Positions 1,381 through 29,007 of a stretch of 64,000 nucleotides of DNA are shown here, in pieces. Under the pieces are notes generated by a model. That model was not told the DNA's origin. It worked only from the letters and a program-made list of their open reading frames with translations, and searched no databases. The translations under genes and the position numbers were made by a program. Source of the stretch: an uncultured Syntrophomonadaceae bacterium. GTDB lineage: Bacteria > Bacillota > Dethiobacteria > DTU022. Each line of letters starts with the position of its first letter. The first letter of the stretch is position 1. Location of the stretch: NCBI GenBank assembly GCA_964390725.1, contig CAYMIW010000002.1, positions 6,875 through 70,874 on the forward strand. Reading direction: 5' to 3'.

Positions 1381-1430
1381 TGCAACGTTTGTTTAGCTGG
1401 CTATAATGGCGAGTTATTTTTGAGTATTTA

Positions 1431-4272: not shown

Positions 4273-4276
4273 TTTA

Positions 4277-11531: not shown

Positions 11532-11646
11532 ACAAATCTGTATGTCTATGGTTCACAAATGTCCATAATGATGTTCTGCAGAGATCCTGGAGGCATCCCT
11601 CCAGGATCTGCTTTATCAGCCACCTTTGTAAGTGGAGGAGATTCTC

Positions 11647-12657: not shown

Positions 12658-12668
12658 GGAGGAACACC

Positions 12669-13562
12669 ATGCTGACAAAAGGATTTCTTTTTGAGACAAT
12701 AAAACCAAAAGTAAAAGAGTTCAGGTTTTCATTTCACCTGCTGCAAAAAAATCAGCTGACACGATTTGCCTTATACCTGGTTATAGCATTGTTTCTTCTT
12801 GCTGTTTTTGCACCGCTTATTATTCCTTACCCCACCCATATCAGTGATGAAACTAATACTGATAACCGTCTTCAGCCACCTTCCCGAGAGCATTTGTTCG
12901 GCACGGACGAACTGGGCCGTGATATTTTCAGTCGTGTAATCTTTGGCACGCGCATATCGCTAAACACTGCCGTAATGGCAGTTGGATTGGCATTACTGAT
13001 TGGCATTCCACTAGGTGCTATTGCTGGTACCGTGGGTGGATGGATAGATGAAGTAATCATGCGGATTACCGACATCTTCCTTAGTTTTCCTCCTCTGCTT
13101 TTAGCAATTGCTGTTGTGGCAGTCTTGGGACCCAGCCTTCAAAACGCCATGCTGGCTATTGCGATTTCCTGGTGGCCCTGGTATACCCGGCTTGTACGGG
13201 GACAGGCTATTTCTCTTAAGGAGCGAAAATTCATTCATGCCGCTTATGCAATTGGTACCTCTAAAACCAGGATCATTTTCAGCCATATCGTTCCAAACAC
13301 TGTCTCTCCTGTCATTGTGCAGGCATCCCTGGATATGGGCGGCGTTATTCTTACCATCGCTTCCCTGAGCTTTCTGGGCCTTGGAGCCCAGGCACCCACT
13401 CCTGAATGGGGCCTGATGATCAGTACCAGTCGAAACTATTTTTTAAATGCTGCCTGGTACAGCCTTTTCCCTGGTTTAGCTATTTTTATTACCGTTTTGG
13501 GATTTAACCTGCTGGGTGACGGATTTCGGGAAATTTTGGATCCCAAGACCCGAGAAAATTAG
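12669..13562 (+). CDS. ABC transporter permease (DppC/OppC-like)
   Basis: RBS gaggagg. Permease with six predicted TM segments and typical OppC N-terminal extension. Confidence 0.85.
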   Translation: MLTKGFLFETIKPKVKEFRFSFHLLQKNQLTRFALYLVIALFLLAVFAPLIIPYPTHISDETNTDNRLQPPSREHLFGTDELGRDIFSRVIFGTRISLNTAVMAVGLALLIGIPLGAIAGTVGGWIDEVIMRITDIFLSFPPLLLAIAVVAVLGPSLQNAMLAIAISWWPWYTRLVRGQAISLKERKFIHAAYAIGTSKTRIIFSHIVPNTVSPVIVQASLDMGGVILTIASLSFLGLGAQAPTPEWGLMISTSRNYFLNAAWYSLFPGLAIFITVLGFNLLGDGFREILDPKTREN

Positions 13563-13573
13563 GGGGATCAACC

Positions 13574-15394
13574 ATGACACCTTATTTCATGATTAAAGAC
13601 CTCAAAGTAAACCATCTTTCCTATGCAGGAAAGCGAAAAGTCTTGGAAATTGATCACATAAGTATTAACAAGGGAATGACATATGGGATCGTAGGGGAAA
13701 GCGGTGCAGGGAAAACCGTGCTGGCTCTGACCATCCTGCAATTGCTCCAATGTCCTCCAGGGGAAATAACATCGGGAGAGATTAATCTGGACGGACTCAA
13801 CATGATGAAAAAAGCAGACAGTTTTATGCGAGACAAAATCAGAGGAAAAAAAATCTCCATGATTTTTCAGGATCCCATGTCTACATTGAACCCGGTTTTT
13901 ACCGTTGGTTACCAGGTAACCAAAGTAATCCGGACTAATAAAAATCCCAGGATGAGAGAGAAAGAAGCAGCCCGGCAATCTGTGGAAATGCTCAAATTGG
14001 TTAAACTTCCTGATGTTGAAGATATTATGAAAAAATATCCTCACGAACTGAGCGGAGGCCAACGGCAGCGTGTCATTATTGCAATGGCCCTGGCTTGCGG
14101 AGCCGAGTTCCTGATCGCTGACGAACCTACCAGAAATCTAGATGTTACTATTCAGGCCAGTATCCTGAAAACTCTGAAAGAACTCCAACGAGAGCTCGGT
14201 GTTACTATTTTATTTATCGCTAACAACCTGAGCCTGGTTTCAACTTTCTGCGACGAAATTGGGATTCTTTATAAAGGTAGTTTGGTGGAACAGGGTTCTG
14301 TAAAGAGAATTCTTAATAACCCCCAGCATAACTACACCAAGCTTTTACTGGAATCAGTGACTCAGGATCGCCATAAGCCTTTTCGAACGAAAAATTCAGA
14401 AGACATTCTGCTTCAAGTTGATACTCTTTACAAATACTTTCCTGTAAAAAAGTCTTTCTTGCAAAAGGAAACGCTGTTCGTAAAAGCGGTGGATGATGTC
14501 AGTCTAAAACTCCGAAAAGGAGAAGTGCTGGGAATCGTTGGAGAATCGGGCTGCGGCAAATCAACTCTGGTCAATACTATTCTCAATCTGAACGAACCAA
14601 CTTCCGGTAATGTAATTTTTAATGGTGATAATCTATACACTATCCAGGCAAGCCATCTGCGTCGCGTTCGAAAAAACATTCAAATTGTGTTTCAGGATCC
14701 ATTTTGGTCGCTAAATCCTCGCTGGCTGGTGAAAAACATTATCGCTGAACCCATTAAGGTACATGAAAATCTAAATGCTATTGAATTGCTTCGGCGTGTG
14801 GAAGAATTGCTGGTTATGGTAGGTCTGGATAAAGAAGCGGCCTTTAAATATCCTCATGAGTTTAGTGGTGGTCAGCGTCAACGTATTGCCATTGCCCGTT
14901 CACTGGCTGTTAATCCCAAGCTGGTTGTCCTTGATGAACCCACTTCTTCCATTGATGTAATGTCCCAGGATCAAATACTCAAGCTTTTAGAGGATCTTAA
15001 AGAGAAGCTGGGATTGACAAATATACTGATTTCGCACGATTTAAGTGTTGTCCACTATATGGCAGATCGGATTATTGTGATGTATTTAGGGAAAATTGTA
15101 GAAGATGGTCCAGCACATTCTATTTTTAAGAATCCCAAACATCCTTATACACAGGCCCTGTTTAATTCCATTCCCAATTTGCACAAAGATAACATCGAAC
15201 AATTGGAAACCATTGAAGAAAATATCCCCAGTGCTATTTATCTTCCTTCCGGATGCCGGTTCCATACCAGGTGCAAATATGTAATGCCCCGTTGCAAAGA
15301 AGAACAGCCTGTTTTTGCTACCATCGATACTGATCATCATGCAGCCTGCTTTTTGTGTGCGGCTGAAGAACTACAGTCCGAGCCAATTGTTTAA
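13574..15394 (+). CDS. ABC transporter ATP-binding protein with two fused ATPase cassettes (DppD/DppF-like)
   Basis: Two Walker A motifs (GESGAGKT, GESGCGKS), two LSGGQRQR signatures, and a C-terminal oligopeptide-transporter ATPase extension. Confidence 0.85.
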   Translation: MTPYFMIKDLKVNHLSYAGKRKVLEIDHISINKGMTYGIVGESGAGKTVLALTILQLLQCPPGEITSGEINLDGLNMMKKADSFMRDKIRGKKISMIFQDPMSTLNPVFTVGYQVTKVIRTNKNPRMREKEAARQSVEMLKLVKLPDVEDIMKKYPHELSGGQRQRVIIAMALACGAEFLIADEPTRNLDVTIQASILKTLKELQRELGVTILFIANNLSLVSTFCDEIGILYKGSLVEQGSVKRILNNPQHNYTKLLLESVTQDRHKPFRTKNSEDILLQVDTLYKYFPVKKSFLQKETLFVKAVDDVSLKLRKGEVLGIVGESGCGKSTLVNTILNLNEPTSGNVIFNGDNLYTIQASHLRRVRKNIQIVFQDPFWSLNPRWLVKNIIAEPIKVHENLNAIELLRRVEELLVMVGLDKEAAFKYPHEFSGGQRQRIAIARSLAVNPKLVVLDEPTSSIDVMSQDQILKLLEDLKEKLGLTNILISHDLSVVHYMADRIIVMYLGKIVEDGPAHSIFKNPKHPYTQALFNSIPNLHKDNIEQLETIEENIPSAIYLPSGCRFHTRCKYVMPRCKEEQPVFATIDTDHHAACFLCAAEELQSEPIV

Positions 15395-15433
15395 TTACAC
15401 CCAATGAGTCAAAATAGCTGAGGAGGTAATCAT

Positions 15434-16537
15434 ATGATTAATTTAGAACGACAGGATCTGCTTGATATTCTCTATGGATGCACTATACTGGGCACAGGCG
15501 GCGGTGGTAGTCTTGAAAACGGTATTGAAAAGATCGATCAGGCATTCGAAGCCGGCAAAACATTTACACTGGTTGATTTTGGTGAGATAGATCCAACTGA
15601 TTTAATTGTTACCCCTTATTGCTGTGGGGCTATATCTCCTGAGACGGAAGAAGATCGGAAAAAATATGAAGGCCTTCCTGTACAGCAGGAAGTCCCACAG
15701 GTGCTGGCTCTTAAAGAAATGGAAAAATATCTAGGCCAGGAAGTGAAGGCAGTTATCTCTACGGAACTGGGCGGCGGAAATACGGCAGTTGCTTTTTACA
15801 GTGCTGCTATGGCAGGTAAGCTCATTGTTGATGGAGATCCTGCAGGCAGATCTGTTCCGGAACTGCAGCATTCTACCTATTACCTGAACGATATTCCTAT
15901 TCATCCAATAGCAGTTGTCAACGAATTTGGTGAATCTGCCATCATCACCAATGTGATCAATGATTACCGCGCGGAATCTCTTGTTCGTGCCCTGGCCATA
16001 GTCAGCAATAATCAAATTGCAGTTGTTGACCATGTTCAGCCAGCCGGCATACTAAAAAACGCGGTTATTCGTGGCGCCATTACTGATGCCTGGAAAATTG
16101 GCAAAGCTTACAGAATTGCCCATGAAAAGCGTCAGGATCCTGTAAGTGCCGTCATCGAAGCAGGACAGGGTGCTCTTTTATTTACCGGAGTTGTACGCTC
16201 TAACGAATGGGGAACCGTTGAAGGCTTTACGGTAGGCGATGTAATTCTTGATGGAACCGGCTCTTACAGGGGTGATGAGTACAAAATCTGGTATAAAAAT
16301 GAAAACATTATCACCTGGAAAAACGGTAATTTTCATGCAACCGTTCCAGATCTTGTTTGCATTATAAACACAGAGACAGGCAAACCGGTCATGAATCCAT
16401 ACTTTGGAAAAAACATGCTTGTTGCAGTCTATGCTTTACCTGCTCCCACTGTATGGACAACTGAAAAAGGACTAGCGGTTCTCGGGCCAAGAAGCTTTGG
16501 GTTTGATTTAACCTGGCGTCCTTTCGACCAACTGTAG
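15434..16537 (+). CDS. DUF917 family protein (hydantoinase-associated family)
   Basis: RBS gaggagg. N-terminal GCTILGTGGGGS glycine-rich motif characteristic of DUF917 as I recall it. Same operon as the ABC importer with no intervening terminator. Confidence 0.55.
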   Translation: MINLERQDLLDILYGCTILGTGGGGSLENGIEKIDQAFEAGKTFTLVDFGEIDPTDLIVTPYCCGAISPETEEDRKKYEGLPVQQEVPQVLALKEMEKYLGQEVKAVISTELGGGNTAVAFYSAAMAGKLIVDGDPAGRSVPELQHSTYYLNDIPIHPIAVVNEFGESAIITNVINDYRAESLVRALAIVSNNQIAVVDHVQPAGILKNAVIRGAITDAWKIGKAYRIAHEKRQDPVSAVIEAGQGALLFTGVVRSNEWGTVEGFTVGDVILDGTGSYRGDEYKIWYKNENIITWKNGNFHATVPDLVCIINTETGKPVMNPYFGKNMLVAVYALPAPTVWTTEKGLAVLGPRSFGFDLTWRPFDQL

Positions 16538-16618
16538 CCTTCGAACATCTGCCGTCTGAAAGGGTAGCGTTTTGTCTGGGGCTTCAACGCTTTCCTGGAA
16601 GAAAATCTTGCCCGAGGA

Positions 16619-17818
16619 GTGAATAATGTGTATTATATAACTGTTTCGGATGCGTTGAAACTGCCATCTTTTCAGAGTGCACAGGTAATTGCCGGCAGCG
16701 GTGGACTGGACCGAAAAGTCTATCGGATTAGCGTTGTGGAGTGCCCGGAATTTCCTGTCGACTATGAAATATTCGGTGCGACGAATAATCTGTACGCTAA
16801 AGGTGATTTTTTTATCTCCAGCATGTATGCTATCAAGGACTCGCCCGAATTGTTGTTTGACACCATCAAGCTTTACCACCAGTTTAATTCCAGCGGTCTG
16901 GTATTGTTCCTCAGGTATTTCCCCCAGATCCCCCCAGAAGTGATTCACTATGCTAATGAAGTCAATTATCCATTCATCACCCTGGATAAAAACATCCCAT
17001 ATGCTGATGTAATCAGCGATGTGATGAAAGCAATCTTTGCAAAACAGCATAACAGTACATCTGTGATGCTGCTGGACCAGATCCTCGAAAACAACTATGA
17101 TGAAGAAAAGCTGGAACGCCTGGCTTATACACTGAATCCGGGTTTTCAACGCTATTTAATAGCTTTTCACTTACAGCTGGACAACGAAATTACTGCTGAG
17201 AACAATTTTATTATCAAAAGCATAAACAACGATCAACACATGTTTGCTATAAACTACCATCACACCATCCTGGGGTTCTATACCACAGAAAAGCCCATCC
17301 GCCAGGAACAGGAAGATAACCTGATTAAAAGCATCCGTCAGCTGATCAACAAATATGCTTCTCAATACCATATGGGGATCAGTGATGTCCATGAAAAGCC
17401 CCGCCATCTCAAGAATAGTATTGAGCAAGCCATGATCGCCAGCAAGACAGCTCTGATCAGCCGTTCGCCCGTTGAACACTACAGCCGAATCGGTTCTTAC
17501 AAATTGCTACTGCAAATGAAAAACAGGGAAGTGCTCAGGCAGTTTTATGCCGAAACCATTGCTCTCCTGGAACAGTATGATGAGGAAAACAAAGGAGACC
17601 TGCTACACACTATGATCTGTTATGTTAAAAACAGTGGCGATTTTAAAAAAACTGCTGCGGAGTTGTTTCAGCATGAGAACACCGTTCGGTACCGGCTGAA
17701 CCGCATCAGCCAGCTATGGAATAAAGATAACAGCAATCTGGGGTTTTATGAAAATATATCCTTAGCTTATAAGGTGCATCAGATTCTAACCTATGAGGAG
17801 ACAGATCTGGTGCCTTAA
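16619..17818 (+). CDS. PucR-family transcriptional regulator
   Basis: C-terminal HTH TAAELFQHENTVRYRLNRISQL typical of the PucR C-terminal domain. RBS ggagtg. Confidence 0.7.
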   Translation: MNNVYYITVSDALKLPSFQSAQVIAGSGGLDRKVYRISVVECPEFPVDYEIFGATNNLYAKGDFFISSMYAIKDSPELLFDTIKLYHQFNSSGLVLFLRYFPQIPPEVIHYANEVNYPFITLDKNIPYADVISDVMKAIFAKQHNSTSVMLLDQILENNYDEEKLERLAYTLNPGFQRYLIAFHLQLDNEITAENNFIIKSINNDQHMFAINYHHTILGFYTTEKPIRQEQEDNLIKSIRQLINKYASQYHMGISDVHEKPRHLKNSIEQAMIASKTALISRSPVEHYSRIGSYKLLLQMKNREVLRQFYAETIALLEQYDEENKGDLLHTMICYVKNSGDFKKTAAELFQHENTVRYRLNRISQLWNKDNSNLGFYENISLAYKVHQILTYEETDLVP

Positions 17819-18027
17819 TAGAAGAACAATTACTTATGACAAATAGTATACGTGGGGTTATGTTTTAAATTAGAAGGTTTTATGTGGTACAATTTCAAGA
17901 TGGCCAAGCAACTACCATTTTAACATGTCATGCTCCATCTTAGTCTAAGCAATCTGCGTTATGGGAACCCTGTTTTCTGCTTCCGATTTCCGGGTCTTTA
18001 ACAGCCCCTGCGAACTTAGCATATTGT

Positions 18028-18444
18028 CTAAAAATTACTTTGCTCCCCCTTAACAAACTTCTGTATATAATCTGTTATCAAATTCAAAGAATCGCCTGGT
18101 TTAAATACTTGATCAACAAAACCACTACTAATTAATTCTGTAGCGTCGTCTTCTGGGATAATTCCTCCAACTAAAAACAAAACATCACCTATGCCATTTT
18201 CATTTAGCAGTCTACGAATTTCAGGAACAAGGGACATGTGCGCCCCGGAAAGAACGCTTACACCAACGACATCAACATCTTCCTGTAAAGCAACCTCGGC
18301 AATCTGTTTGGGTGTCTGGTGTAAGCCTGTGTAAATTACTTCCATTCCAGCATCCCGTAAAAACCGTGCTATCACTTTTACACCGCGGTCATGACCGTCT
18401 AAGCCTGGTTTGGCTACTAATACCCTAATTCTTTTATTAACCAT
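18028..18444 (-). CDS. acyl-CoA mutase small subunit (cobalamin B12-binding domain)
   Basis: [33 protein letters not shown] contains the DxHxxG B12-binding motif of methylmalonyl/isobutyryl-CoA mutase C-terminal domains. Confidence 0.85.
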
Positions 18445-18460
18445 TTATAGCCTCCTAATC

Positions 18461-20125
18461 TTAAAATATGGGCTTTTCTCGGTATTCACCAAAAACTTCT
18501 TTAAGCGCTGTAACAATTTCTCCCTCAGTAGTATACACTTTAACTGCATCTAAAATCATTGGGATTAGGTTTTCATTACCGCTTGCTGCTTTTTTCAACC
18601 TCAATAAACAGTTTACTACAGCCTGGTTATCTCGTCTCAACTTTAAATCTTTGAGCCTGCCGACCTGCTTATTTTCAATTAATGGATTAATTTTAAGAAG
18701 ATCAACTTCTGTTTGATCATTGCTACAAAAATGATTAACTCCAACCATTACTCGATCTTTACGGTCTACTGCCTGCTGATATTTATAGGCGGCATCAGCT
18801 ATCTCTTGTTGAAAGAACCCATGTTCTATTGCAGGCAGCACCCCTCCCAGCTGATCTATTTTTTCAAAATATTGCTCTACTTCTGCATCCAATTCATTGG
18901 TAAGAGTTTCGATAAAATAAGATCCGCCCAGAGGGTCAATAGTATTGGTAACACCACTTTCACAGGCAATAATTTGTTGAGTACGAAGAGCGATTTTCAC
19001 TGCTTTTTCAGTAGGCAAAGCTAATACTTCATCCATTGAATTGGTGTGTAACGACTGGGTGCCGCCTATTATTGCAGATAATGCCTCAAGAGCAGTACGC
19101 ACAATATTATTTTCAGGTTCGCTGGCAGTTAAACTACAACCCGCAGTTTGGGTATGGAATCTCAGTGATAGTGTTCGGTGATCTTTCGCTCCGTAATTAT
19201 TCTTCATTCTCCTCGCCCATATGCGTCTTGCGGCTCGATATTTGCAGATCTCTTCGAAAAAATCTATGTGAGCATTAAAGAAAAATGAAAGCCGGGAGCC
19301 AAATTTGTCTATATCAAGACCTGCCTTGATCCCAGCTTCGACATAAGTAAAACCATTTGCAAGAGTAAAAGCCAGTTCCTGCACAGCCGTAGAACCGGCT
19401 TCACGAATATGATAACCGCTTATGCTAATCGTATTCCATTGCGGTACATGATCAGCAGCAAAAGAAAAAATGTCAGTAATCAATCTTATGGATGGTTCTG
19501 GTGGGAATATCCAAGATTTCTGAGCTATATACTCTTTCAATATATCGTTTTGAATAGTTCCGCCGAGGTTGTTTAATTTTATGCCCTGTTTTTCAGCATT
19601 AGCTAAATACATACACCAAAGTATTGATGCAGGGCCGTTAATGGTCATTGAAGTAGTAATTGAATCAACAGCTATGCCATTAAACAAGGTTTCCATATCA
19701 TCGAGAGAATCTATCGCTACTCCACAACGGCCGACTTCTCCAAAAGCACGTTCGTGATCTGAATCGAAGCCCATAATCGTTGGCAGATCAAAAGCAACAC
19801 TTAGTCCTGTTTGACCTTGATTCAGCAGATACTGATAGCGCTTATTAGACTCAAGGGCATCTCCAAATCCTGAAAACTGGCGCATTGTCCAAAGACGACC
19901 CCGGTACATACTGGGATGAATTCCTCTCGTATAAGGGTATTCACCTGGGAGACCTATGTCTCTGTCATAATCAAGTATTTTAAGATCGACTGGAGTATAA
20001 AGAGATAGTATGTTTTTTCCGGAAACAGTAAGAAAAGCATCATTTCTCTCCTGGCATTTTGGGGAACCATTAATCCATAACTTCAATCTGTCCTCGGTAG
20101 TTGTTCGGTTGTTATTTTTGCTCAA
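18461..20125 (-). CDS. acyl-CoA mutase large (catalytic) subunit, methylmalonyl-CoA mutase family (IcmA/McmA-like)
   Basis: 554-aa protein with a TIM-barrel substrate-binding domain of MCM-family mutases (RGRLWTMRQFSGFGDA, FHTQTAG). The separate small B12 subunit lies immediately downstream. Confidence 0.85.
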   Translation of the reverse strand: MSKNNNRTTTEDRLKLWINGSPKCQERNDAFLTVSGKNILSLYTPVDLKILDYDRDIGLPGEYPYTRGIHPSMYRGRLWTMRQFSGFGDALESNKRYQYLLNQGQTGLSVAFDLPTIMGFDSDHERAFGEVGRCGVAIDSLDDMETLFNGIAVDSITTSMTINGPASILWCMYLANAEKQGIKLNNLGGTIQNDILKEYIAQKSWIFPPEPSIRLITDIFSFAADHVPQWNTISISGYHIREAGSTAVQELAFTLANGFTYVEAGIKAGLDIDKFGSRLSFFFNAHIDFFEEICKYRAARRIWARRMKNNYGAKDHRTLSLRFHTQTAGCSLTASEPENNIVRTALEALSAIIGGTQSLHTNSMDEVLALPTEKAVKIALRTQQIIACESGVTNTIDPLGGSYFIETLTNELDAEVEQYFEKIDQLGGVLPAIEHGFFQQEIADAAYKYQQAVDRKDRVMVGVNHFCSNDQTEVDLLKINPLIENKQVGRLKDLKLRRDNQAVVNCLLRLKKAASGNENLIPMILDAVKVYTTEGEIVTALKEVFGEYREKPIF

Positions 20126-20323
20126 TATTTTAATCCTCGCTTTTCAAATTGACCTTCACTTGTTATATTCAATTTGCTTTACTTTTACATTGTTTTATAA
20201 CACCGGTAATACTTTTTCACTGGCAACAGAAGATGCCGAATGAGATTTGGTAGTTTTTGCACCGAGTTTTGTTCGAACGTTTTTAAATAAACCTGCTGAC
20301 TTAGAAGCTTTTTCAATCCATAT

Positions 20324-20560
20324 CTATCCACATGATTCTTTTGTGAACCCTTTACTTATAGTAAAAACGAGATCTGGACAAACCTGATAACAATTGGCAC
20401 AGCCAATACATTTATCTTGCTCAATCACTGTTATAAAACAATAGCCGTGGGTATTAACAGTATCTCCCAGTGACAATATGTTTTTAGGGCAAAAGCAACA
20501 ACATAGGCCACACCCTTTACATAGCTCTTTATTAATATGCAGTTTTACTTTATATGCCAT
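20324..20560 (-). CDS. 4Fe-4S dicluster ferredoxin (likely delta subunit of the 2-oxoacid:ferredoxin oxidoreductase)
   Basis: Two CxxCxxCxxxCP motifs (CKGCGLCCCFCP, CIGCANCYQVCP) in 78 aa. Confidence 0.8.
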   Translation of the reverse strand: MAYKVKLHINKELCKGCGLCCCFCPKNILSLGDTVNTHGYCFITVIEQDKCIGCANCYQVCPDLVFTISKGFTKESCG

Positions 20561-20564
20561 TGTT

Positions 20565-21644
20565 TCAACTCATTTCAATAGATTTTACTTTGTTTATTCT
20601 CTCCAGAGCATATAAATCAGCTGCCCGATAGGGTGGTATTTTTTTTTCTTTGGACATTCTCATTATTTTCATAACTGTGTCATGTATGCCTTCTACTTTG
20701 GTGAATACTTTTTGACGATCATATCCACTGACTTCAGAGGCGACATTTATTAATCCACCGGCATTGATTATATAATCTGGTATATACCAAATACCTTGTT
20801 GATGTAAATAATCTCCATGTTTTTCACATTCTAAAACGTTATTTGCAGCACCTGCGATGATCTCGCATTTTAACCTTCCGATCGTATTATCATTGACAAC
20901 TGCTCCTAACGCACAGGGAGAATAGATATTACACTTAACATTAAATATATCATCAGGCTCAATTGCAACAGCATTAAATGCACTCACAGCTCGTTTAACT
21001 TGCGACATACAAATATCCGAAACTAATAAATTTGCGCCGTCATCATGTAAATATTGACACAAATTATAACCAACATTACCCAGCCCCTGAACGGCGATAA
21101 CAAGTCCCTTCATGGTATCCGAACCATTTAGGTAGCTGACTGCAGCTTTAATACCCTTGTAAACACCATAAGCAGTAAAGGGAGAAGGATCCCCACTTCC
21201 GGTGGAAGTGCCAACAACACAATTAGTTACCTGGTGAATAATGTCCATGTCATGCTGGTTTGTACCTACATCTTCAGCTGTTATATACCTGCCATTTAAA
21301 TAATTTAATGAACGACCATAAGCCTTAAGCATTCTCTCATTTTTGTCCCTTGAGCAGTCTCCTATGAGCACCGCTTTCCCACCACCTAAGTCTAAACCAC
21401 AGGCTGCTGCTTTGTATGTCATACCACGAGCCAACCTGAGCACATCAAGCAAGGCTTCATCTTCTGATCTGTAACTCCACATCCTCGTGCCGCCAAGTGC
21501 TGGCCCTAAAGTAGTATCATGAATGGCAACTATAGCTTTCATTTTGGTTGCGGGATCAAAAAAAAATGTTATTTGCTCGTAAGGTAAGTCCTTGCAATAG
21601 TTAAAAATACCCACATATATCATCCTTTCGCTTCGAATATCCAA
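20565..21644 (-). CDS. Glu/Leu/Phe/Val dehydrogenase family enzyme, leucine (branched-chain amino acid) dehydrogenase-like
   Basis: AIHDTTLGPALGGTRMW and catalytic-lysine motif LDLGGGKAVLIGD match leucine dehydrogenase. C-terminal Rossmann domain. Confidence 0.8.
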   Translation of the reverse strand: MDIRSERMIYVGIFNYCKDLPYEQITFFFDPATKMKAIVAIHDTTLGPALGGTRMWSYRSEDEALLDVLRLARGMTYKAAACGLDLGGGKAVLIGDCSRDKNERMLKAYGRSLNYLNGRYITAEDVGTNQHDMDIIHQVTNCVVGTSTGSGDPSPFTAYGVYKGIKAAVSYLNGSDTMKGLVIAVQGLGNVGYNLCQYLHDDGANLLVSDICMSQVKRAVSAFNAVAIEPDDIFNVKCNIYSPCALGAVVNDNTIGRLKCEIIAGAANNVLECEKHGDYLHQQGIWYIPDYIINAGGLINVASEVSGYDRQKVFTKVEGIHDTVMKIMRMSKEKKIPPYRAADLYALERINKVKSIEMS

Positions 21645-21773
21645 ACCCTATCAGCAATTTAGACCGGTGCATGCCTTAATGAAATCTTAAGCGACAAATA
21701 CTGCAACTTATCGAATCTAATTACGCCATGCTGAAAGCATACTTTATTGACCTGATGTTTTTTTTATTGCCAC

Positions 21774-22040
21774 TTAATTCCTGTTATTGTTAAGCTCACA
21801 TAATACACCTGTAACATCAATTAGTTTCTCAATCTGCTTAATAAGATATTCAAACGGTAGGTTGCTGATAGATTCTTTAACAGTAATGATGATTAATAAG
21901 GTTGAATTTTCATTTCTATTAACTAAGACATTCTCTATAACATAATCTTGACGCCGGATAACGCCGAATACTTTAGAAATTACATCACTTTTGTCTTTAG
22001 TATAAATCACCAAGGTTTTATTCAATGCTTTTACCATCAC
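21774..22040 (-). CDS. small ACT-domain-like protein
   Basis: 88-aa beta-alpha-beta-rich sequence resembling ACT regulatory domains. Weak call from composition and pattern only. Confidence 0.35.
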   Translation of the reverse strand: MMVKALNKTLVIYTKDKSDVISKVFGVIRRQDYVIENVLVNRNENSTLLIIITVKESISNLPFEYLIKQIEKLIDVTGVLCELNNNRN

Positions 22041-22070
22041 TCTTCAATCAATTTTCATTTTAATGTGACT

Positions 22071-22619
22071 TCAAATGCTGCAGAGATCGTATTCATGGCC
22101 TGCTTTTAAAGCCTTAATATTGGCATCGATAAGGTTAAGTTTGTGTGGCGGCAAAACTTCTTCAAGCGCTCTATAAATATTTTCAATATATAGAACTTTA
22201 GTGTGTTTTACAAAAGCACCAATGATAACAAGATTAGCCACCCTGTTATCACCGAGCTCCTTAGCGATCTCACCTGCTTCTATTGAAAACAATTGATGGC
22301 TACTTGAAGGAGGTAAATTTTCTGTAGGAGTCTTGTTGAAAATAATTACACCATTGTTTTTTACGGTATGATGGAATTTATCGTATGATGGCTTATTAAA
22401 AGCCAATAATGCATCAGGTTCTTCAATCAGAGGTGAATTAATATCTATGTCAGATATTTGGACTAAACAATGAGCTGTTCCTCCACGCATTTCAACACCA
22501 TACGAAGGAACCCAGGTTACTTTTTTACCTTCAAGCATTGCAGTATGAGCAAAAAGGTATCCGCAGAAAAGTACGCCCTGACCGCCAAAACCGGATATTA
22601 CCAATCCATACTTACTCAC
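22071..22619 (-). CDS. 2-oxoacid:ferredoxin oxidoreductase gamma subunit (VorC/PorC-like)
   Basis: N-terminal LVISGFGGQGVLFCG is the signature of POR/VOR gamma subunits. Confidence 0.8.
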   Translation of the reverse strand: MSKYGLVISGFGGQGVLFCGYLFAHTAMLEGKKVTWVPSYGVEMRGGTAHCLVQISDIDINSPLIEEPDALLAFNKPSYDKFHHTVKNNGVIIFNKTPTENLPPSSSHQLFSIEAGEIAKELGDNRVANLVIIGAFVKHTKVLYIENIYRALEEVLPPHKLNLIDANIKALKAGHEYDLCSI

Positions 22620-23398
22620 AGCACAACAGCTCCCGGATCTTTTATTTTGCCTAATTTATAAAAAGGTAGCATCTCTGTTTCTACCCATTTAATTGATTGT
22701 ATGGGGGTCATGTTCCAGTTTGTAGGGCAGGTAGAAAGCACTTCAACAAAGGAATAACCCAGATTATTAAGTTGAACAAGGAATGCTTCTTTTATAGCAA
22801 TTTTTGCTTTTGCAATATGATGAGGGTTCTGCGCAGAAACACGATTGACGTAAACTGCACCACCAATGTGGCTCAATAATTCAGCGACCAATACTGGCTC
22901 TCCATTGTAATCTTTTTTTCTCCCGTCAGGCGTGGTTGTGGTTCGTTGATTTAATAATGAAGTCGGAGCCATTTGTCCTCCTGTCATACCATAGCAGGCA
23001 TTATTAATAAATATAGTTGTTATGGACTCTCCACGAATTGCTGCATGGAGGAATTCAGCCATTCCGATTGAAGCGAGATCGCCATCTCCCTGGTATGTAA
23101 ATACAAAATTTTTAGGATTAACTCTTTTTACACCAGTTGCAACTGCCGGTGCCCTGCCATGCGCCGCTTGAACTACATCAAAGTTGAAATAGTTGCCGGC
23201 GAAAACAGCACATCCAACCGGAGATATCCCTACAGTAAGCTCTCTTAGATCAAGCTCATCAACTAATTCTGCAATAATGCGGTGAATAATTCCATGAGTA
23301 CATCCAGCACAATAATGAGTCCTTAGATTTGCTAATGCTTCTGGCTTAGTGTGCAATTTTTGGTTAATGACATATGCCTCCTTATACAATATAGTCAT
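22616..23398 (-). CDS. 2-oxoacid:ferredoxin oxidoreductase beta subunit (TPP-binding)
   Basis: YCAGCTHGIIHR and GDGD...A thiamine-pyrophosphate binding pattern. Overlaps the gamma gene by 4 nt. Confidence 0.85.
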   Translation of the reverse strand: MTILYKEAYVINQKLHTKPEALANLRTHYCAGCTHGIIHRIIAELVDELDLRELTVGISPVGCAVFAGNYFNFDVVQAAHGRAPAVATGVKRVNPKNFVFTYQGDGDLASIGMAEFLHAAIRGESITTIFINNACYGMTGGQMAPTSLLNQRTTTTPDGRKKDYNGEPVLVAELLSHIGGAVYVNRVSAQNPHHIAKAKIAIKEAFLVQLNNLGYSFVEVLSTCPTNWNMTPIQSIKWVETEMLPFYKLGKIKDPGAVVL

Positions 23399-23405
23399 TG
23401 CATGT

Positions 23406-24458
23406 CTAATTTACAGATCTGATTATTTCCAGTATTTCTGACACATTTGGAATCATTCCACCCATACGGCCATAAAAATGAACCGGCATTATACCATTTA
23501 CCAACAACCTGACATCGTCTACCATTTGACCGGCACTCATCTCGACGACCAATACGGCTTTAGCGGAATTTATCTTTTTATTTATTATATCTTCGGGAAA
23601 TGGCCAAAGTGTAATTGGCCTGATTAAACCTGCTTTAATCCCATGAGAGCGCGCCAAATTAACTGCCTCTTTTGCAATGCGAGCAGAAGTGCCATAAGCG
23701 ATAAGAACAATCACTGCATCATTAATATGATACATTTCCGATCTTTGCTCATTTAAATGGATTTCTTTATATTTTTCTTGGAGTCTGATATTCAATGCTT
23801 CCAACTCAGATGGTTCTAGATACAGGGTGTTGATTTGATTTTTAGATCTGCCTTTACAGCCATTGGTAACCCAGAGTTTGAAGTTAAAATGTTTGTCTGT
23901 TTTTGACTTAATATCTAAATCAACCGTTTCCATCATCTGACCCAGCAAGCCATCACTCAAAATCATGACCGGTATCCGATATTTTTCGGATAAGAAAAAT
24001 GAAAGCTCAGTTAGCGTGAAGATTTCTTGCACTGAAGTAGGTGCCAAGACAATCATCCTATAGTCTCCATGACCACCTCCCCTGGTAGCCTGAAAGTAGT
24101 CTGACTGAGCTGGTTGTATGCCACCAAGCCCCGGCCCTCCACGCATAACATTTACAATAACACAGGGTAATTCCGCGGCTGCTAAATATGATATCCCTTC
24201 CATTTTTAAACTTATTCCCGGACTTGACGATGATGTCATAGCGCGGCCTCCTGCCGCAGCTGCGCCATATACCATGTTTATGGCAGAAATTTCACTTTCG
24301 GCCTGCACAAATACACCCCCGGCCTGACGTAAATTTTTAGCTAAATATTCAGTCAATTCATTCTGCGGTGTTATCGGATAGCCAGCATAAAACTGGCAGC
24401 CTGCTGCTATAGCAGCTGCACCAATTGCCTCATTGCCCTTCATAAGAAGTGTTCCCAT
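23406..24458 (-). CDS. 2-oxoacid:ferredoxin oxidoreductase alpha subunit (ORF extends to 24503; start at MGTLLMKGNEA more consistent with the family)
   Basis: LLMKGNEAIGAAAIAAGCQFYAGYPITP is the conserved POR/VOR alpha N-terminus. Confidence 0.8.
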   Translation of the reverse strand: MGTLLMKGNEAIGAAAIAAGCQFYAGYPITPQNELTEYLAKNLRQAGGVFVQAESEISAINMVYGAAAAGGRAMTSSSSPGISLKMEGISYLAAAELPCVIVNVMRGGPGLGGIQPAQSDYFQATRGGGHGDYRMIVLAPTSVQEIFTLTELSFFLSEKYRIPVMILSDGLLGQMMETVDLDIKSKTDKHFNFKLWVTNGCKGRSKNQINTLYLEPSELEALNIRLQEKYKEIHLNEQRSEMYHINDAVIVLIAYGTSARIAKEAVNLARSHGIKAGLIRPITLWPFPEDIINKKINSAKAVLVVEMSAGQMVDDVRLLVNGIMPVHFYGRMGGMIPNVSEILEIIRSVN

Positions 24459-25213
24459 AATAACAGCTCCTATTCTCAGATGAACAGATAAAATCATATA
24501 CATTACTATGAATCAGGAAATAATATAAGCGTTGCAAGCAAGTTAAGCAAAGACCTGCTCTTAATCTGACGCAAAATAGTCGCAGTTAAGAGTTAAACCT
24601 GGCTGAGGAAATAACTGATTTTTTCAGTCAAAAGTTGCTTTTTAAACTCGGTTGGCTAAATTAAACTATCCATCGATAGGTAGTATATTATATATTCTAT
24701 ATTATATACTATATAATACATAGAAAAGGTTTTGTCAAGATCTTTTTTCAGGCTTCTTGCCGTGTTGATGATTGTGTTTTTTAACAGTCCCTGGGTGTGT
24801 AGAATGTTTTAGTTCTTAAACAACATTGCTCCAAAGAGATCTTTCAAGTGCAAAAAAGAAGAAAGTAACAAGGAGATTGATGATGGAAGAGATTTAGATG
24901 CTGTTTATGGAGCTAAGACCTACTATGGTGCTCGTAAAGATGGTAAGTTATGAGATACACCAACTTATTGGTTTTGCTACAAGCATTATTTAAAGGTGTC
25001 CAGATGTGCCGTTAATCTGTCCGGATGATTCCGGATTCAGTGTCCGGTTACGGCCGAAATACGCATTTAAAAGCAAATATTGTTTTCAACGCAAATGGCT
25101 CTGCAAAGCTAATCTGTCTTTTAACTTTATTTAATATAGAATATAATTGTTTTAATGGCAGGTTTACTTCATATAAATCATGAAAATAAATATTTTGAAA
25201 GGGGATGAAGTAA

Positions 25214-25891
25214 TTGATGCAAGTAGAAAACTTCATATCAAAACGTTCACTTACCGAGCAGCTATATGACAAGTTACGTCATGACATAACTCATAAAGCT
25301 ATCAAGTGTGGAGAAAAAATTGATATTTCAAAGCTTAAAGAGGAGCTTAACATTAGCCAAACCCCAATCCGGGAGGCAATTATTAAGCTGGAACAAGAAG
25401 GTTTGGTTGATTTTATTCCTAATGTAGGTGCCAGGGTAATCAATATTGTTCAGAAAGATGTAAGCCAGATTTTTGATGTAAACTGTATTCTTGACTGCGG
25501 AGCTATATCGCTGGCTTATCTAAGCAATAAATTTGAAAATCTGGTTGCAGAATTAAAGAACTACACCGAAGCTCATTTAGAGCTTGCTTCATCGAATCCA
25601 ACAGATGAGTACTGGAGACAAGCAATGAGCGTTCATATTGTATTCTATAAATATGCTGATAATGATGCTTTGTATAGAGTTGCGAAGCAAATTGAGGCTA
25701 AAACAGATATTCTTTTTGGTGAATACAACATATCAGAAAAAAATCGCTGTATTGGAGCTGAAGAACATTATGCAATTTACAAAGCTACTGAAGAATTTGA
25801 TTGCCAAAAAACTATTGAGGCTATGCAAAAGCATTGGGGGAATGCTAAGCTCAGGCTGCTTAAGTGGTGCGATGATCAAGGCTATAAGTAA
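25214..25891 (+). CDS. GntR-family transcriptional regulator with FCD ligand-binding domain (FadR subfamily)
   Basis: N-terminal wHTH (ISKLKEELNISQTPIREAIIKLEQEGLV) plus an all-helical C-terminal domain. Divergent from the VOR–mutase operon. Confidence 0.8.
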   Translation: MMQVENFISKRSLTEQLYDKLRHDITHKAIKCGEKIDISKLKEELNISQTPIREAIIKLEQEGLVDFIPNVGARVINIVQKDVSQIFDVNCILDCGAISLAYLSNKFENLVAELKNYTEAHLELASSNPTDEYWRQAMSVHIVFYKYADNDALYRVAKQIEAKTDILFGEYNISEKNRCIGAEEHYAIYKATEEFDCQKTIEAMQKHWGNAKLRLLKWCDDQGYK

Positions 25892-26158
25892 AATCAATTA
25901 ACAGGTTTTGATCGTCAGATTGTCAAGGAGACGGGGTTGTTGAGATTTGTTGCCACCAGAATTTACTCCTTTTCACGGGCGTTATTATTGTTGAGAAGCT
26001 TCTGCCAAATATAATCACGCTAAAATCATTTAACCAATACAGTAGAATTAATACCTTTTCTTTTGTTGATAGCAACATCACACACCGAAGGATGATACAT
26101 ACTATGCAGGAAAAATTATTTAAGAGAGGTTCATAATAACATCATTCCTTTTTTGTCT

Positions 26159-26917
26159 TCAGATAATCTTTTGACTTATTAAACCAAGCAAATCAATTAT
26201 ATCCGGCATAATACATAATAGGGTCAGGTCTTGCAATTCAACTGTAAACGGTAAAATAAAATGGAAGGATGGGGGGTGCAGACGTTTTCTTGGAGAAATC
26301 ACACCGCCAATCCCAACTGTACTCATTGAGCCAAGTAAGCCGGGATCTTCCAGACGTTGGCTAAAGACTAATGAGGTGTATTGCGAACCATGATCAGAAA
26401 GATGGGTAAGCTCCTTATGGGGCCTACGATTCCAAACGGCCATGTTAAGGGCACTTACCACTAAATCAGCAACCGGTTTTTTGCTCATTGGCCAACCGGT
26501 AGCGATCCGAAAAAACAGGTCAATAATCACCGCCAGGAAAAGCCAGCCTTCAGAGGTATCGTGCCGGGTAATATCCAGCTACCCAGAGTTGGTTAGGTTC
26601 AATTGCTGTGAAGGAATGCTCAACAAGGTCAGGATAAACCAGTCGGATCAAGTCTCTTTTTATGTGGCCGTTATTCTTACGACGATGCTCTCCGACAAGG
26701 TCTTCTTCACACATTAACCGGGTAACCCGTTTTCCAAGCAACTAATACCAAGTTCAAATGTAAGTACGGCGTGAATTCTGGGTGCGCCGTAGGTAACTTC
26801 ACTATCATCATGAATTTCTCTAATTAGCTCTTTGAGCATGATGTCTTTCAAAGATAAGGAGAAAGTTTCCGCTCTAAAATTACTCCAAGTATTGAAGTAT
26901 CCACCAAAATGGGTCAA
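26159..26917 (-). mobile_element. degenerate IS3-family transposase (OrfB/rve integrase core) remnant, broken by frameshifts and stops
   Basis: Three consecutive minus-strand ORF fragments in different frames: YGAPRIHAVL (HTH_21), NQLWVAGYY (start of rve domain), HLSDHGSQYTSLVF...GSMS (DDE integrase core). No intact ORF. Confidence 0.6.
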
Positions 26918-27289
26918 GTCCGTGATAACGTAATTCTTTTAGATAGAACACCAATAAGTCAGGTTACCAGAGAAAATGTTCATGACCAGTTTTGCATGGT
27001 TTTACAGGATGCCTGGATATGTTGAGGGTACGATTAAAGAAAACATCGTCTTCGCAAAACAAGGGTTAGTGATGAACTGGTTATTGCCGCCGGTTTGGCT
27101 GTTGGGTCGCATCGCTTTATTCAGAACTATATTATAGCCAATTTGTGCAGGACTGCATAATTAACAGTCGAAGAAACAGATCAGTAAATAAACTTCATAT
27201 TGTGTTCATAATTCTGATCTAAACTTGTTTTATAAATTTTAGGGTTTCGGGTATAGATATAATGAGCAGAGGGATAGGAGAGGTGCCTT

Positions 27290-27964
27290 TTGGTAAATAT
27301 ATTGGTGGTTGAGGATAATGAAAAGCTAAGGCAGCTTATGTGTATTCACCTTGTACGCACCGGGTATAATGTTTTTGAAGCAGGTAACGGCTTTGAGGCG
27401 CTGGATGCCTTGGAAAAAGAAGCCATACATCTTATTGTAGCAGATATCATGATGCCTAAGATGGACGGTTATGAGTTAACCGGTGAGCTCCGAGGGGCAG
27501 GGATTACAATTCCCGTATTGTTGGTTACCGCAAAGGAAACTTTAGAGGATAAAAGAAAAGGCTTTAAAACAGGTGTAGATGACTATATGGTAAAACCGAT
27601 AGATATGGAAGAACTGTTGCTCAGAGTTGAGGCGCTACTGCGGCGCTCTAACCTGTCAGGTAGCCATATCCTTAACGTTGGCGCATCAACCTTAAATTCA
27701 GAATCATTGATGGTTACTTTTGGCGAGTGTATTATTTCTCTTCCGCAGAAGGAATTCCTGCTTCTACATATGCTATTGTCCTACCCAAATAAAATATTCA
27801 CACGAAATATTCTAATGGACGAAATCTGGGGCTATGAAAGCGAATCAGACTCACGTACAGTTGATGTTCATATTATGCGCTTGAGAGAAAAGTTTGCGGA
27901 TTCGCCGGATTTTGAGCTTGAAACCGTTAGAGGACTCGGGTATAGAGCGGTGATTAAACGATGA
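27290..27964 (+). CDS. OmpR-family response regulator (REC + winged-helix)
   Basis: TTG start with RBS ggagagg. VVEDNEKL...ADIMMPKMDG receiver. C-terminal trans_reg_C (VDVHIMRLREKF...GLGYRA). Confidence 0.85.
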   Translation: MVNILVVEDNEKLRQLMCIHLVRTGYNVFEAGNGFEALDALEKEAIHLIVADIMMPKMDGYELTGELRGAGITIPVLLVTAKETLEDKRKGFKTGVDDYMVKPIDMEELLLRVEALLRRSNLSGSHILNVGASTLNSESLMVTFGECIISLPQKEFLLLHMLLSYPNKIFTRNILMDEIWGYESESDSRTVDVHIMRLREKFADSPDFELETVRGLGYRAVIKR

Positions 27965-29007
27965 AACGCATCCAAACGAAGTTTGCCATATTCCTGGTTC
28001 TTACTGTATTAGCATCATCATTACTAGCAACTCTGCTCTCATTTTTCATCAGCGGCATTCTGGCTACCAGAGGGAACCCTGCTGCCTTTTATCTGGGTTT
28101 TGCTCTGAAAGAGATCTTGACACCAGTTTTTACTGTAATAATCTCAGTAATAATTATTGCGACAATTTCAAGAAAAGCTGTATCGCCTGTTGTTGAACTG
28201 TCGAACGCAACGAAGCAGATTGCTTCGGGGAAGTTTGATATCAGCTTAAATAGCTTGGAAAGAAAGGATGAGTTCGGACAGCTGGCACAGAATTTTATGA
28301 TCATGGCCCAGGAATTGAAGTCAAACCAATACCTGGCCAAAGATTTTATATCGAATGTTTCTCATGAATTCAGAACACCACTCGCGATTATTTCAGGATA
28401 TGCCAAACTGATAGATAGTGACCAAATCACCAAAGAGGAACGCCATGATTACTTCATGAAGATCCAAAGTGAAACTGGTCGTCTTATAAAACTTGTTAGT
28501 AATATCTTGAATCTTTCAAAGCTTGACAATCGGAAAATACAAGAGCAACCCACACGGTTCTATTTAGATGAACAAATCCGTCAGGCAATATTATCCTTGG
28601 ATCCTCAATGGCGGGTCAAAGGAATTCAGCTGAACGTGGATTTGCCGGAAGTCAGCTATTATGGAAACGAAGATCTGCTGGCCCAGGTGTGGATCAACAT
28701 TCTCGATAACGCAGTTAAATTTACAGGTGTAAACGGTACGATTAGTGTTCAAATGTGTGTTGATAGTCACATGATAATCATAGAAATTGCGGATAACGGC
28801 ATTGGGATGGATGCCACCACGCAATTGAGGATATTTGAGCGGTTCTATCAGGGGGACTCCTCCCATTCAGATCAAGGCTACGGGCTTGGTCTTGCTTTGG
28901 TTAAACAGATACTAGAGGTATTAGGGGCCAGTATCACTATTGACAGTGAGCCGGGTGTTGGCTCAGTGTTTACCGTTTCTATCCCGTTTAACCCTGCGGC
29001 GACTTGA
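27961..29007 (+). CDS. sensor histidine kinase (2 TM, HAMP, HisKA, HATPase_c)
   Basis: H-box SHEFRTPL. N/G boxes (ILDNAVKFT, DNGIGMD, GYGLGLALV). 4-nt overlap with the response-regulator gene. Confidence 0.85.
   Translation: MKRIQTKFAIFLVLTVLASSLLATLLSFFISGILATRGNPAAFYLGFALKEILTPVFTVIISVIIIATISRKAVSPVVELSNATKQIASGKFDISLNSLERKDEFGQLAQNFMIMAQELKSNQYLAKDFISNVSHEFRTPLAIISGYAKLIDSDQITKEERHDYFMKIQSETGRLIKLVSNILNLSKLDNRKIQEQPTRFYLDEQIRQAILSLDPQWRVKGIQLNVDLPEVSYYGNEDLLAQVWINILDNAVKFTGVNGTISVQMCVDSHMIIIEIADNGIGMDATTQLRIFERFYQGDSSHSDQGYGLGLALVKQILEVLGASITIDSEPGVGSVFTVSIPFNPAAT

Follow-up and report, generated by a model that had tools for sequence, protein, structure and literature searches.

A minus-strand operon in a Syntrophomonadaceae bacterium joins predicted branched-chain amino acid-oxidizing enzymes to a second isobutyryl-CoA mutase and is a candidate for valine catabolism via butyryl-CoA

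Why should genes for the oxidation of branched-chain amino acids be followed on the same strand by a split B12-dependent acyl-CoA mutase? This question is raised by a locus in the 64,000-nucleotide stretch of DNA from an uncultured Syntrophomonadaceae bacterium that was analyzed here (the window). ORF checks and domain profiles revealed eight minus-strand ORFs at window positions 24503-18028 with the predicted domains, in the order 2-oxoisovalerate:ferredoxin oxidoreductase (VOR) alpha, VOR beta, VOR gamma, ACT protein, leucine dehydrogenase (LeuDH)-type dehydrogenase, ferredoxin, mutase large subunit and mutase small subunit, as a first-pass annotation had proposed. The intergenic distances amount, in the 5' to 3' direction, to 7, -4, 30, 129, 4, 198 and 16 nt, with 7 nt between VOR alpha and beta and a 4-nt overlap of beta and gamma, and the eight genes are presumably co-transcribed. 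Internal promoters could be located in the 129-nt gap upstream of the LeuDH gene and in the 198-nt gap upstream of the large mutase subunit gene. Also, the two regulators described earlier were both recovered: a divergent FadR-subfamily GntR regulator upstream (25214-25891, plus strand; GntR HTH PF00392, 56 bits; FCD PF07729, 35 bits) and, converging with the operon downstream, a PucR regulator (16619-17818), which probably belongs to the adjacent Opp/DUF917 operon rather than to the VOR-mutase operon.

The large mutase subunit IcmA2 (18461-20125, minus strand; PF01642, 726 bits) has a TTG start preceded by a GAGGA ribosome-binding site, and the small cobalamin-binding subunit IcmB2 (18028-18444, minus strand; PF02310, 96 bits; TIGR00640, 164 bits, above cut-off) contains the DxHxxG cobalamin motif as DGHDRG. 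A TIM-barrel large subunit is thus combined with a separate cobalamin-binding small subunit, as in isobutyryl-CoA mutases (ICMs; EC 5.4.99.13). The subunit sizes of 554 and 138 aa had been taken to point to ICM; however, they are not diagnostic because the genuine methylmalonyl-CoA mutase (MCM) of the same genome is split in the same way (557 and 137 aa). The positions of MCM Tyr89 and Arg207 are the two specificity determinants, and ICM has Phe and Gln there (Jost et al., 2015, as cited in PMC7238569). In alignments to 5req/1req and 4r3u, IcmA2 presents Phe (RQF) and Gln (IAQ) at these positions, and the residue comparison against ICM, MCM and 2-hydroxyisobutyryl-CoA mutase (HCM) signatures suggested in the first-pass annotation therefore returned the ICM type. 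MCM, which that annotation had set against its own reading, was rejected, as Phe and Gln replace the carboxylate-binding Tyr89 and Arg207. The best PDB match of IcmA2 is HcmA (4r3u, 550 bits), and HCM was rejected too: of its determinants, which we take to be Ile90 and Asp117 together with Gln208 (Aquincola numbering), only the Gln is shared, Phe standing for Ile90 and Ala for Asp117. The IcmF model NF045497 matched the C-terminal barrel with 376 bits (equivalog cut-off 1500). On the basis of these sequence features, the window mutase is best read as an ICM type with predicted isobutyryl-CoA mutase activity.

Three split mutases are encoded in the genome, one MCM, a canonical ICM and the window ICM. 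The mutase on contig C47 is a true MCM that has Tyr and Arg (RQY and VAR) and adjoins the propionate genes for SucCD, epimerase and carboxyltransferase. The canonical, resident ICM on contig C34, which shares Phe/Gln, is arranged as thiolase-ACAD-ACAD-CobA-MeaB-IcmAB, and IcmA2 and IcmB2 are 74 and 63% identical to its subunits, respectively. In the phylogeny, IcmA2 grouped with P0002/P0003 (SH-aLRT 99) and was nested among CobA-MeaB-linked ICMs of Syntrophomonadaceae MAGs (71-78% identity to the clade), a placement with ICMs of isobutyrate-isomerizing organisms; the tie of this clade to Slip_0757-0760 is one of cluster architecture (PMC5017805) and not of direct sequence comparison. Its terminal branch is long (0.40 versus a median of 0.06). 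At sites whose conservation within the clade reaches 95% or more, 16 changes were counted, most of them conservative, compared to 1-10 in controls; one of the 16 is a Gln to His exchange at the site that aligns with MCM Tyr75. An adjacent or fused G-protein chaperone (MeaB/MeaI), usual for ICMs though not strictly defining them, is lacking: neither MeaB nor an adenosyltransferase is encoded in the VOR-mutase operon and the only MeaB of the genome lies on C34 beside the resident ICM, so that IcmA2/IcmB2 would have to draw on the resident system for activity. The window mutase is a second ICM copy, probably an acquired one.

The dehydrogenase (20565-21644, minus strand; ELFV_dehydrog_N and ELFV_dehydrog), probably translated from the ATG at 21623 as judged from the ribosome-binding site and gene-caller lengths, has the ELFV fold of about 350-365 aa and is nearer to LeuDHs than to Glu, Phe or Trp dehydrogenases. 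Solved LeuDHs scored 413-437 bits against it (6acf, 437 bits), compared to 327 bits for Trp-DH and 205 bits for Phe-DH, and the NCBIfam model ScyB stayed below its cut-off (399 versus 600). After three close metagenome relatives had been set aside, it ranked nearest to Bacillales bcd-type LeuDHs, with 57-60% identity versus 44-49% to Syntrophomonadaceae LeuDHs. A tblastn search gave a single match in the genome, so that the window copy is its only LeuDH.

Similarly, the VOR alpha subunit (23406-24503, minus strand; POR_N, 176 bits; PFOR_II, 85 bits) passed the NCBIfam VorB model NF005507 with 532 bits (cut-off 399); an AGGAG ribosome-binding site precedes its likely start, the ATG at 24458, and the gene-caller product has 350 aa. 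The ThDP-binding beta subunit (22616-23398, minus strand; TPP_enzyme_C, 73 bits) scored 121 bits, below cut-off, with the PorB_KorB subfamily model, and the gamma subunit (22071-22619, minus strand; PF01558 POR, 129 bits) passed the PorC_KorC model TIGR02175 with 85 bits (cut-off 81). The ferredoxin (20324-20560, minus strand; Fer4 families), earlier called a dicluster ferredoxin, does have two [4Fe-4S] clusters, and this description can be refined: its best NCBIfam matches, all below cut-off, are the OFOR delta-type models OorD, OGOR delta and PorD_KorD. Homologous ferredoxins lie immediately upstream of VorA in the related clusters L037, L111, L146, L192 and L194, and the protein is probably the VOR delta subunit. 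All four subunits of a VOR would thus be present, with a VOR-specific match for alpha and the right domains at scores below family cut-offs for beta and delta, and the family assignment suggests 2-oxoisovalerate as the substrate. The stand-alone ACT protein of 88 aa (21774-22040, minus strand; ACT_5, 38 bits) scored 33 bits, below cut-off, with AHAS small-subunit models, matched PDB 6u9h with an E value of 2e-8 and structurally matched the 'AHAS 2 small subunit' Atlas cluster with a TM score of 0.85. It resembles valine-binding AHAS small subunits and is possibly a branched-chain amino acid sensor; no ACT homolog adjoined a VOR in the 160 loci compared.

The divergent control region of 710 bp (24504-25213) contains a TTGACA box, inverted repeats I1/I2 with 88-93% complementarity and a near-perfect AT-rich palindrome at 24681-24718, which is a candidate GntR operator. 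In this leader neither an Rfam family, including T-box or other amino-acid riboswitches, nor a sigma-54 -24/-12 match was found.

Taken together, catabolism of valine through isobutyryl-CoA to butyryl-CoA in a beta-oxidizing anaerobe of the Syntrophomonadaceae type appears to us a reasonably probable function of the operon. That route had been put forward in the first-pass annotation and is supported by the Phe/Gln pair, the LeuDH type and the VorB model; it can be refined in that the host is of the beta-oxidizing Syntrophomonadaceae type and not a Stickland fermenter. Valine would be deaminated by LeuDH to 2-oxoisovalerate, the four-subunit, ferredoxin-dependent VOR would convert this to isobutyryl-CoA, CO2 and reduced ferredoxin, IcmA2/IcmB2, served by the single MeaB and the CobA adenosyltransferase beside the resident ICM on the other contig, would rearrange isobutyryl-CoA to butyryl-CoA, and host beta-oxidation enzymes would cleave the latter to two acetyl-CoA. 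These substrates and the direction of the reactions are predicted from family assignments. Expression would probably be controlled by the GntR regulator acting at the leader palindrome, the ACT protein may act as a sensor of branched-chain amino acids, and the oxidation of leucine and isoleucine could also be begun by the operon enzymes. The host encodes two ACADs and a thiolase on C34 and shows six Hbd and five crotonase matches. Isobutyrate/butyrate isomerization is already known in Syntrophomonadaceae, and the CobA-MeaB-ICM cluster type was assigned to it in Syntrophothermus lipocalidus (PMC5017805). If the proposed route is correct, valine could be burnt through ordinary beta-oxidation.

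The operon is probably a self-contained catabolic unit acquired horizontally. GC3 is 0.28-0.36 for all eight operon genes versus 0.49-0.53 for the resident ICM; within the genome, the three largest operon genes fall between the 4th and 11th percentiles, and resident IcmA ranks at the 91st. Neither a counterpart nor synteny was found in four congeners. The unit is bounded on the right by a decayed transposase, a truncated integrase-core (rve) fragment (26159-26530, minus strand; PF00665, 42 bits, partial; 123-aa ORF). For VorA, LeuDH and the mutase, the closest relatives (P0365, P0241 and P0003, at 75, 74 and 77%, respectively) are each on a JGI contig of 21,286 bp, and these matching sizes hint at their co-location in a second organism with this linkage.

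Could the operon run in the opposite direction, from butyryl-CoA, the central intermediate of the host, to isobutyryl-CoA, by reductive VOR carboxylation to 2-oxoisovalerate and by LeuDH amination to valine, with valine feedback through the IlvN-like ACT protein? VOR and LeuDH are reversible, VOR-type enzymes work anabolically in certain anaerobes (see the references in PMC7238569), the ACT protein is similar to regulatory subunits of a biosynthetic enzyme, and a fatty acid-oxidizing host is rich in butyryl-CoA enzymes. However, the canonical ilv genes are in place, with IlvC, IlvD and an AHAS large subunit that passes its cut-off at 828 bits, so that there is no biosynthetic need for the operon. 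Its absence from the four congeners and its FadR-type GntR control in place of an amino-acid riboswitch also argue against biosynthesis, and reduced ferredoxin would presumably be expensive for a syntroph; we consider this direction unlikely. Use of the enzymes for branched lipids, with LeuDH and VOR making branched acyl-CoA starters like the Bacillus bkd operon and the ICM balancing isobutyryl-CoA and butyryl-CoA for iso-even fatty acids, is suggested by the bcd-like LeuDH, but ptb/buk, FabH and lipid genes are absent from the unit and, in its genus, the operon belongs to the accessory genes, which makes this use very improbable.

A further alternative concerns the mutase, which might have drifted towards another product of LeuDH and VOR (2-methylbutyryl-CoA/n-valeryl-CoA or isovaleryl-CoA/pivalyl-CoA), or be a redundant, separately transcribed passenger functionally unconnected to the genes upstream. 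The long terminal branch, the 16 substitutions including the His, the gap preceding IcmA2 and the presence of a resident ICM would fit such a history. Against it, neither the two residues known to determine specificity nor the cobalamin motif has changed, the mutase shares the low GC3 of VOR and LeuDH, its closest relative lies on a contig of the same size as theirs, and the linkage recurs at other loci; drift or passenger status is therefore rather doubtful.

Among known systems, the proposed valine-to-butyryl-CoA route resembles that of Streptomyces cinnamonensis, which uses valine dehydrogenase, BCKDH and IcmA/IcmB (Ratnatilleke 1999 and Vrijbloed 1999, as cited in PMC7238569), in that both start with an ELFV-family dehydrogenase, form isobutyryl-CoA by oxidative decarboxylation and employ a split Phe/Gln ICM. 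In contrast, the Streptomyces route is aerobic, has an NAD/lipoamide BCKDH in place of a ferredoxin-dependent VOR, is encoded by dispersed genes and supplies polyketide precursors, not energy metabolism. The Bacillus subtilis bkd operon (ptb-bcd(LeuDH)-buk-lpdV-bkdAA-bkdAB-bkdB) likewise co-transcribes LeuDH with a branched-chain 2-oxoacid-oxidizing enzyme, but in the window VOR replaces E1/E2/E3, an ICM is added and sigma-54/BkdR control is missing; with no ptb, buk or E1alpha/E1beta/E2/E3 domains in the unit and no sigma-54 promoter in the leader, a Bacillus-type bkd operon was rejected. IcmF (fused ICM-MeaI) has an ICM-type catalytic core as well, but is a single fusion of 1,076 positions with a G-protein domain, whereas the window enzyme is split and without it.

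Within the family, the comparison is with the Syntrophomonadaceae ICM cluster (CobA-MeaB-IcmA-IcmB; Slip_0757-0760, PMC5017805; here C34), alike in split subunits, Phe/Gln, DxHxxG and the proposed isobutyryl-CoA/butyryl-CoA interconversion feeding beta-oxidation. Unlike it, the window copy has no adjacent MeaB, adenosyltransferase, ACAD or thiolase, ends a VOR-ACT-LeuDH-ferredoxin operon, shows low GC3, sits on a long branch and lacks counterparts in the congeners. The same logic of a dehydrogenase and an oxoacid oxidoreductase linked to ICM recurs in the family: at L037, L111 and L146 the ICM cluster is flanked by a LeuDH-Fd-VorABG cluster, and in many members (L016 and about a dozen other loci) a sigma-54-controlled operon of LeuDH and an NADP-linked 2-oxoacid oxidoreductase lies downstream of it. 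The resident C34 locus of this genome lacks the sigma-54 activator and LeuDH. Coupling of VOR/LeuDH to a mutase, called uncommon earlier, is thus common in its looser form; what is unusual is the compact packaging, every enzyme type in the operon being already known. The family sigma-54 system consists of separate operons several kb apart, and a GltD-like subunit, the more distant LeuDHs and a sigma-54 activator belong to it. The window operon is its compact variant, a single unit in which a VorB-type VOR and an ACT protein are combined with a dedicated ICM under GntR-type control.

The eight ORFs on the minus strand between 24503 and 18028 form a real and coherent unit of known kinds of enzymes, and domain matches bore out the gene list of the first-pass annotation for all of them. 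The alpha subunit of VOR (2-oxoisovalerate:ferredoxin oxidoreductase) matches POR_N and PFOR_II and reaches 532 bits with the NCBIfam VorB model NF005507 (cut-off 399), the beta subunit matches TPP_enzyme_C, and the gamma subunit matches POR and scores above the cut-off of TIGR02175. They are followed by an ACT protein of 88 aa (ACT_5; 21774-22040), a LeuDH of the ELFV dehydrogenase type, a ferredoxin of 78 aa (2x[4Fe-4S]), and the large (554 aa; MM_CoA_mutase, 726 bits) and small (138 aa; B12-binding) subunits of a mutase, IcmA2 and IcmB2. The gaps between these genes amount, in order, to 7, -4, 30, 129, 4, 198, and 16 nt, and RBS positions together with gene-caller lengths put the probable true starts of VOR alpha and LeuDH at 24458 and 21623, respectively. 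As its top matches are delta subunits of the 2-oxoacid oxidoreductase (OFOR) family and its homologs lie directly 5' of VorA in related clusters, the ferredoxin is probably the fourth VOR subunit. A gene for a GntR+FCD regulator (25214-25891) is divergent from the operon and a PucR regulator gene (16619-17818) converges on it.

The closest solved structure to the window mutase is HcmA (2-hydroxyisobutyryl-CoA mutase; 550 bits), with human and Propionibacterium methylmalonyl-CoA mutases (MCM) behind. Its alignments to these solved relatives settle the type at three positions. The window mutase has Phe at the position of MCM Tyr89, where HcmA has Ile and 5req, the Y89F mutant of MCM, has Phe. 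Gln is found at the position of MCM Arg207 and Ala at that of HcmA Asp117. The Phe/Gln pair is reportedly a signature of isobutyryl-CoA mutase (ICM), going back to Ratnatilleke and colleagues in 1999 and to work on IcmF. Where PMC7238569 cites Jost et al. (2015), the sites of Tyr89 and Arg207 are said to determine specificity in the family, and Tyr/Arg is given as the mark of MCM. Because Phe/Gln stand at these two sites, the Arg/Tyr pair that would have indicated an MCM is absent, and the earlier proposal of a valine to isobutyryl-CoA to butyryl-CoA operon ending in a split mutase holds on this point. The window mutase differs at 16 positions that are at least 95% conserved in its clade. Most of these substitutions are conservative, and they leave the specificity and cobalamin motifs untouched. 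A subtle substrate shift may have occurred.

Three split mutases are encoded in the genome and serve as an internal control. The one on contig C47 is flanked by succinyl-CoA synthetase on one side and by methylmalonyl-CoA epimerase and carboxyltransferase on the other, and its Tyr/Arg pair identifies it, by sequence, as a textbook MCM. On that contig, positions 4992-12958 hold a complete propionate module on a single strand, with a sigma-54 activator carrying a PAS domain, SucC, SucD, the split MCM, methylmalonyl-CoA epimerase, and carboxyltransferase. The resident ICM on contig C34 is preceded by genes for thiolase, two acyl-CoA dehydrogenases, CobA, and MeaB, the latter being the only MeaB of the genome. 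In Syntrophothermus lipocalidus, isobutyrate isomerisation has been attributed to a cluster of this type (Slip_0757-0760; PMC5017805). Identity of the window copy to the C34 mutase is 74% for the large and 63% for the small subunit, and both mutases have Phe/Gln. Since all three paralogs are split alike into about 555 + 137 aa, subunit size, which the first-pass annotation had matched to ICM, does not discriminate between them. New in the operon are a second ICM paralog without a chaperone of its own and the ACT protein; it is a natural test case for the question whether one MeaB/adenosyltransferase system can serve two ICMs, and it leaves knowledge of the enzyme families themselves unchanged. 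Tandem pairs of mutase large-subunit genes on one strand occur at about 7200-11600 in three loci from Chloroflexota MAGs (L052, L069, and L074), their products being 60-61% and 63-65% identical to the window mutase.

A catabolic direction of the operon is favoured because its LeuDH is of the catabolic Bacillales type, control appears to be of the GntR type, with a TTGACA box and a palindrome of 38 bp adjoining the FadR-type gene, AHAS, IlvC, and IlvD are present in the genome, and abundant beta-oxidation enzymes could consume butyryl-CoA. Within window positions 16000-27500, no T-box, cobalamin riboswitch, or other Rfam family was detected; no sigma-54 promoter was found in the operon leader, and promoter and terminator scans did not rise above chance. 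A beta-oxidation cluster with a fused crotonase/3-hydroxyacyl-CoA dehydrogenase of 679 aa (56278-58317) is located on the minus strand of the window at 55069-61260, about 30 kb from the operon. Plain beta-oxidation handles 2-methylbutyryl-CoA, not isobutyryl-CoA. On this ground we infer from pathway knowledge, and for the family from PMC5017805, that valine in particular is the amino acid with which an ICM is logically paired. Valine would then be converted directly to butyryl-CoA inside a beta-oxidising syntroph.

The reverse route from butyryl-CoA to valine is possible, as VOR and LeuDH are reversible and the ACT protein resembles valine-binding small subunits of AHAS; an anabolic necessity of the operon was rejected given the ilv genes. 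At the thresholds applied, none of the 160 loci retrieved showed an ACT homolog beside VOR, which suggests that the ACT gene is particular to the operon as it occurs in the window. To our knowledge, a valine-sensing regulatory subunit has not been described for the ferredoxin-dependent 2-oxoacid oxidoreductase family. In a rather improbable reading, the IlvN/IlvM-like ACT protein would act as such a subunit and gate flux through the operon, which would then be a B12-dependent shunt leading from butyryl-CoA to valine or a reversible valve between these two pools. A predicted complex of the ACT protein on VOR alpha/beta/gamma scored 0.00 in a prediction without controls, which is evidence neither way. 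The usual view is that fermenters excrete protein-derived branched-chain amino acids in the form of isobutyrate, isovalerate, and 2-methylbutyrate, and that specialist syntrophs then degrade these acids. If the catabolic reading is true, that food chain would be shortened where a beta-oxidising syntroph itself converts valine to butyryl-CoA, some Syntrophomonadaceae would be predicted to take up amino acids or peptides themselves, and LeuDH-VOR-ICM would represent a compact transferable module for making linear C4 units from valine under anaerobic conditions.

None of the 40 relatives examined, four congeners (genomes of the same genus) included, has more than one gene of the ICM type or more than one of the MCM type. 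A recent duplication of the resident ICM within the genome was rejected on three counts. In the tree, the window copy groups with the metagenome proteins P0002 and P0003 (SH-aLRT 99), apart from the C34 clade, on a terminal branch of 0.40 versus a median of 0.06; constraining it as the sister of C34 lowers lnL by 41.7 (AU p 0.018), the group having been named after the tree was seen; and GC3 is 0.28-0.36 in all eight operon genes (window mutase 0.31) versus 0.49-0.53 in the resident ICM genes. Among 1,437 long ORFs, the three largest operon genes rank at the 4th-11th percentile of GC3 and resident IcmA at the 91st. The four congeners gave no LeuDH match, and VorA matches in only two of the four, at 51-52%, similar to the window genome's own paralog on contig C7 (53%). 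No DNA-level synteny with window positions 9-29 kb was found in them, save for paralog-level mutase matches. The GntR gene is closely followed by a truncated integrase fragment. Low GC3, the grouping with P0002/P0003, the lack of a congener counterpart, and the integrase fragment together make the operon, mutase included, look like one acquired unit and not a local duplication. The stretch 9000-28999 contains an Opp-type peptide transporter, DUF917, PucR, the operon, GntR, an IS remnant, and a two-component system. As GC3 in the Opp-PucR part is higher (0.36-0.51) than in the operon, the parts of this region may have been acquired separately, as a mosaic.

Of the 80 species-representative and 80 metagenome loci that the mutase retrieved, none has the window arrangement and nearly all are of the canonical CobA/MeaB type. 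The metagenome loci came from a scan with P0003, in which the best match was 79% and the contig of P0003 itself was not among the results. No close LeuDH ortholog was found among 73 genomes of the family (best 57%), 149 of the class, or 401 sampled across the phylum (best 59-60%). A partial match in genome G010 (80%) and the nearest VorA/LeuDH, in G024, were rejected as window-like loci for their canonical arrangement.

Three lines indicate that the linkage of LeuDH and VOR with ICM is meaningful. A looser linkage recurs independently, in that LeuDH-Fd-VorA-VorB-VorG clusters adjoin the ICM cluster upstream on the same strand (L037), 4 kb downstream (L111), or convergently and adjacent (L146). 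Also, in many family members the ICM cluster is followed by a sigma-54 activator, LeuDH, and a GltD-containing oxoacid oxidoreductase (L016; LeuDH matches in about 12 loci). Finally, the nearest relatives of VorA (P0365, 75%), LeuDH (P0241, 74%), and the mutase (P0003, 77%) fall on what may be, judged from equal sizes in cluster tables and not from gene order, the same 21,286-bp JGI/Logan contig; by size in these tables, VorA and LeuDH relatives are also paired on contigs of 8,656 and 26,509 bp. The operon is a compact, probably transferred variant, under GntR-type control, of a family-wide association of LeuDH and oxoacid oxidoreductase with ICM. Compared with L016 (13993-21662), the C34 locus downstream of the resident ICM (187-7063) still contains LigA and OFOR genes (gamma, GltD-like, alpha, and beta) and has a 170-aa C_GCAxxG_C_C protein in place of the sigma-54 activator and LeuDH, both of which it has apparently lost; for this reason the window carries the only LeuDH of the genome. 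The C34 ICM/beta-oxidation locus recurs at about 100% protein identity on the metagenome contig Ga0334882_1000301, which places the same organism in that JGI metagenome, and another locus (L107) is related to it at 80-94%.
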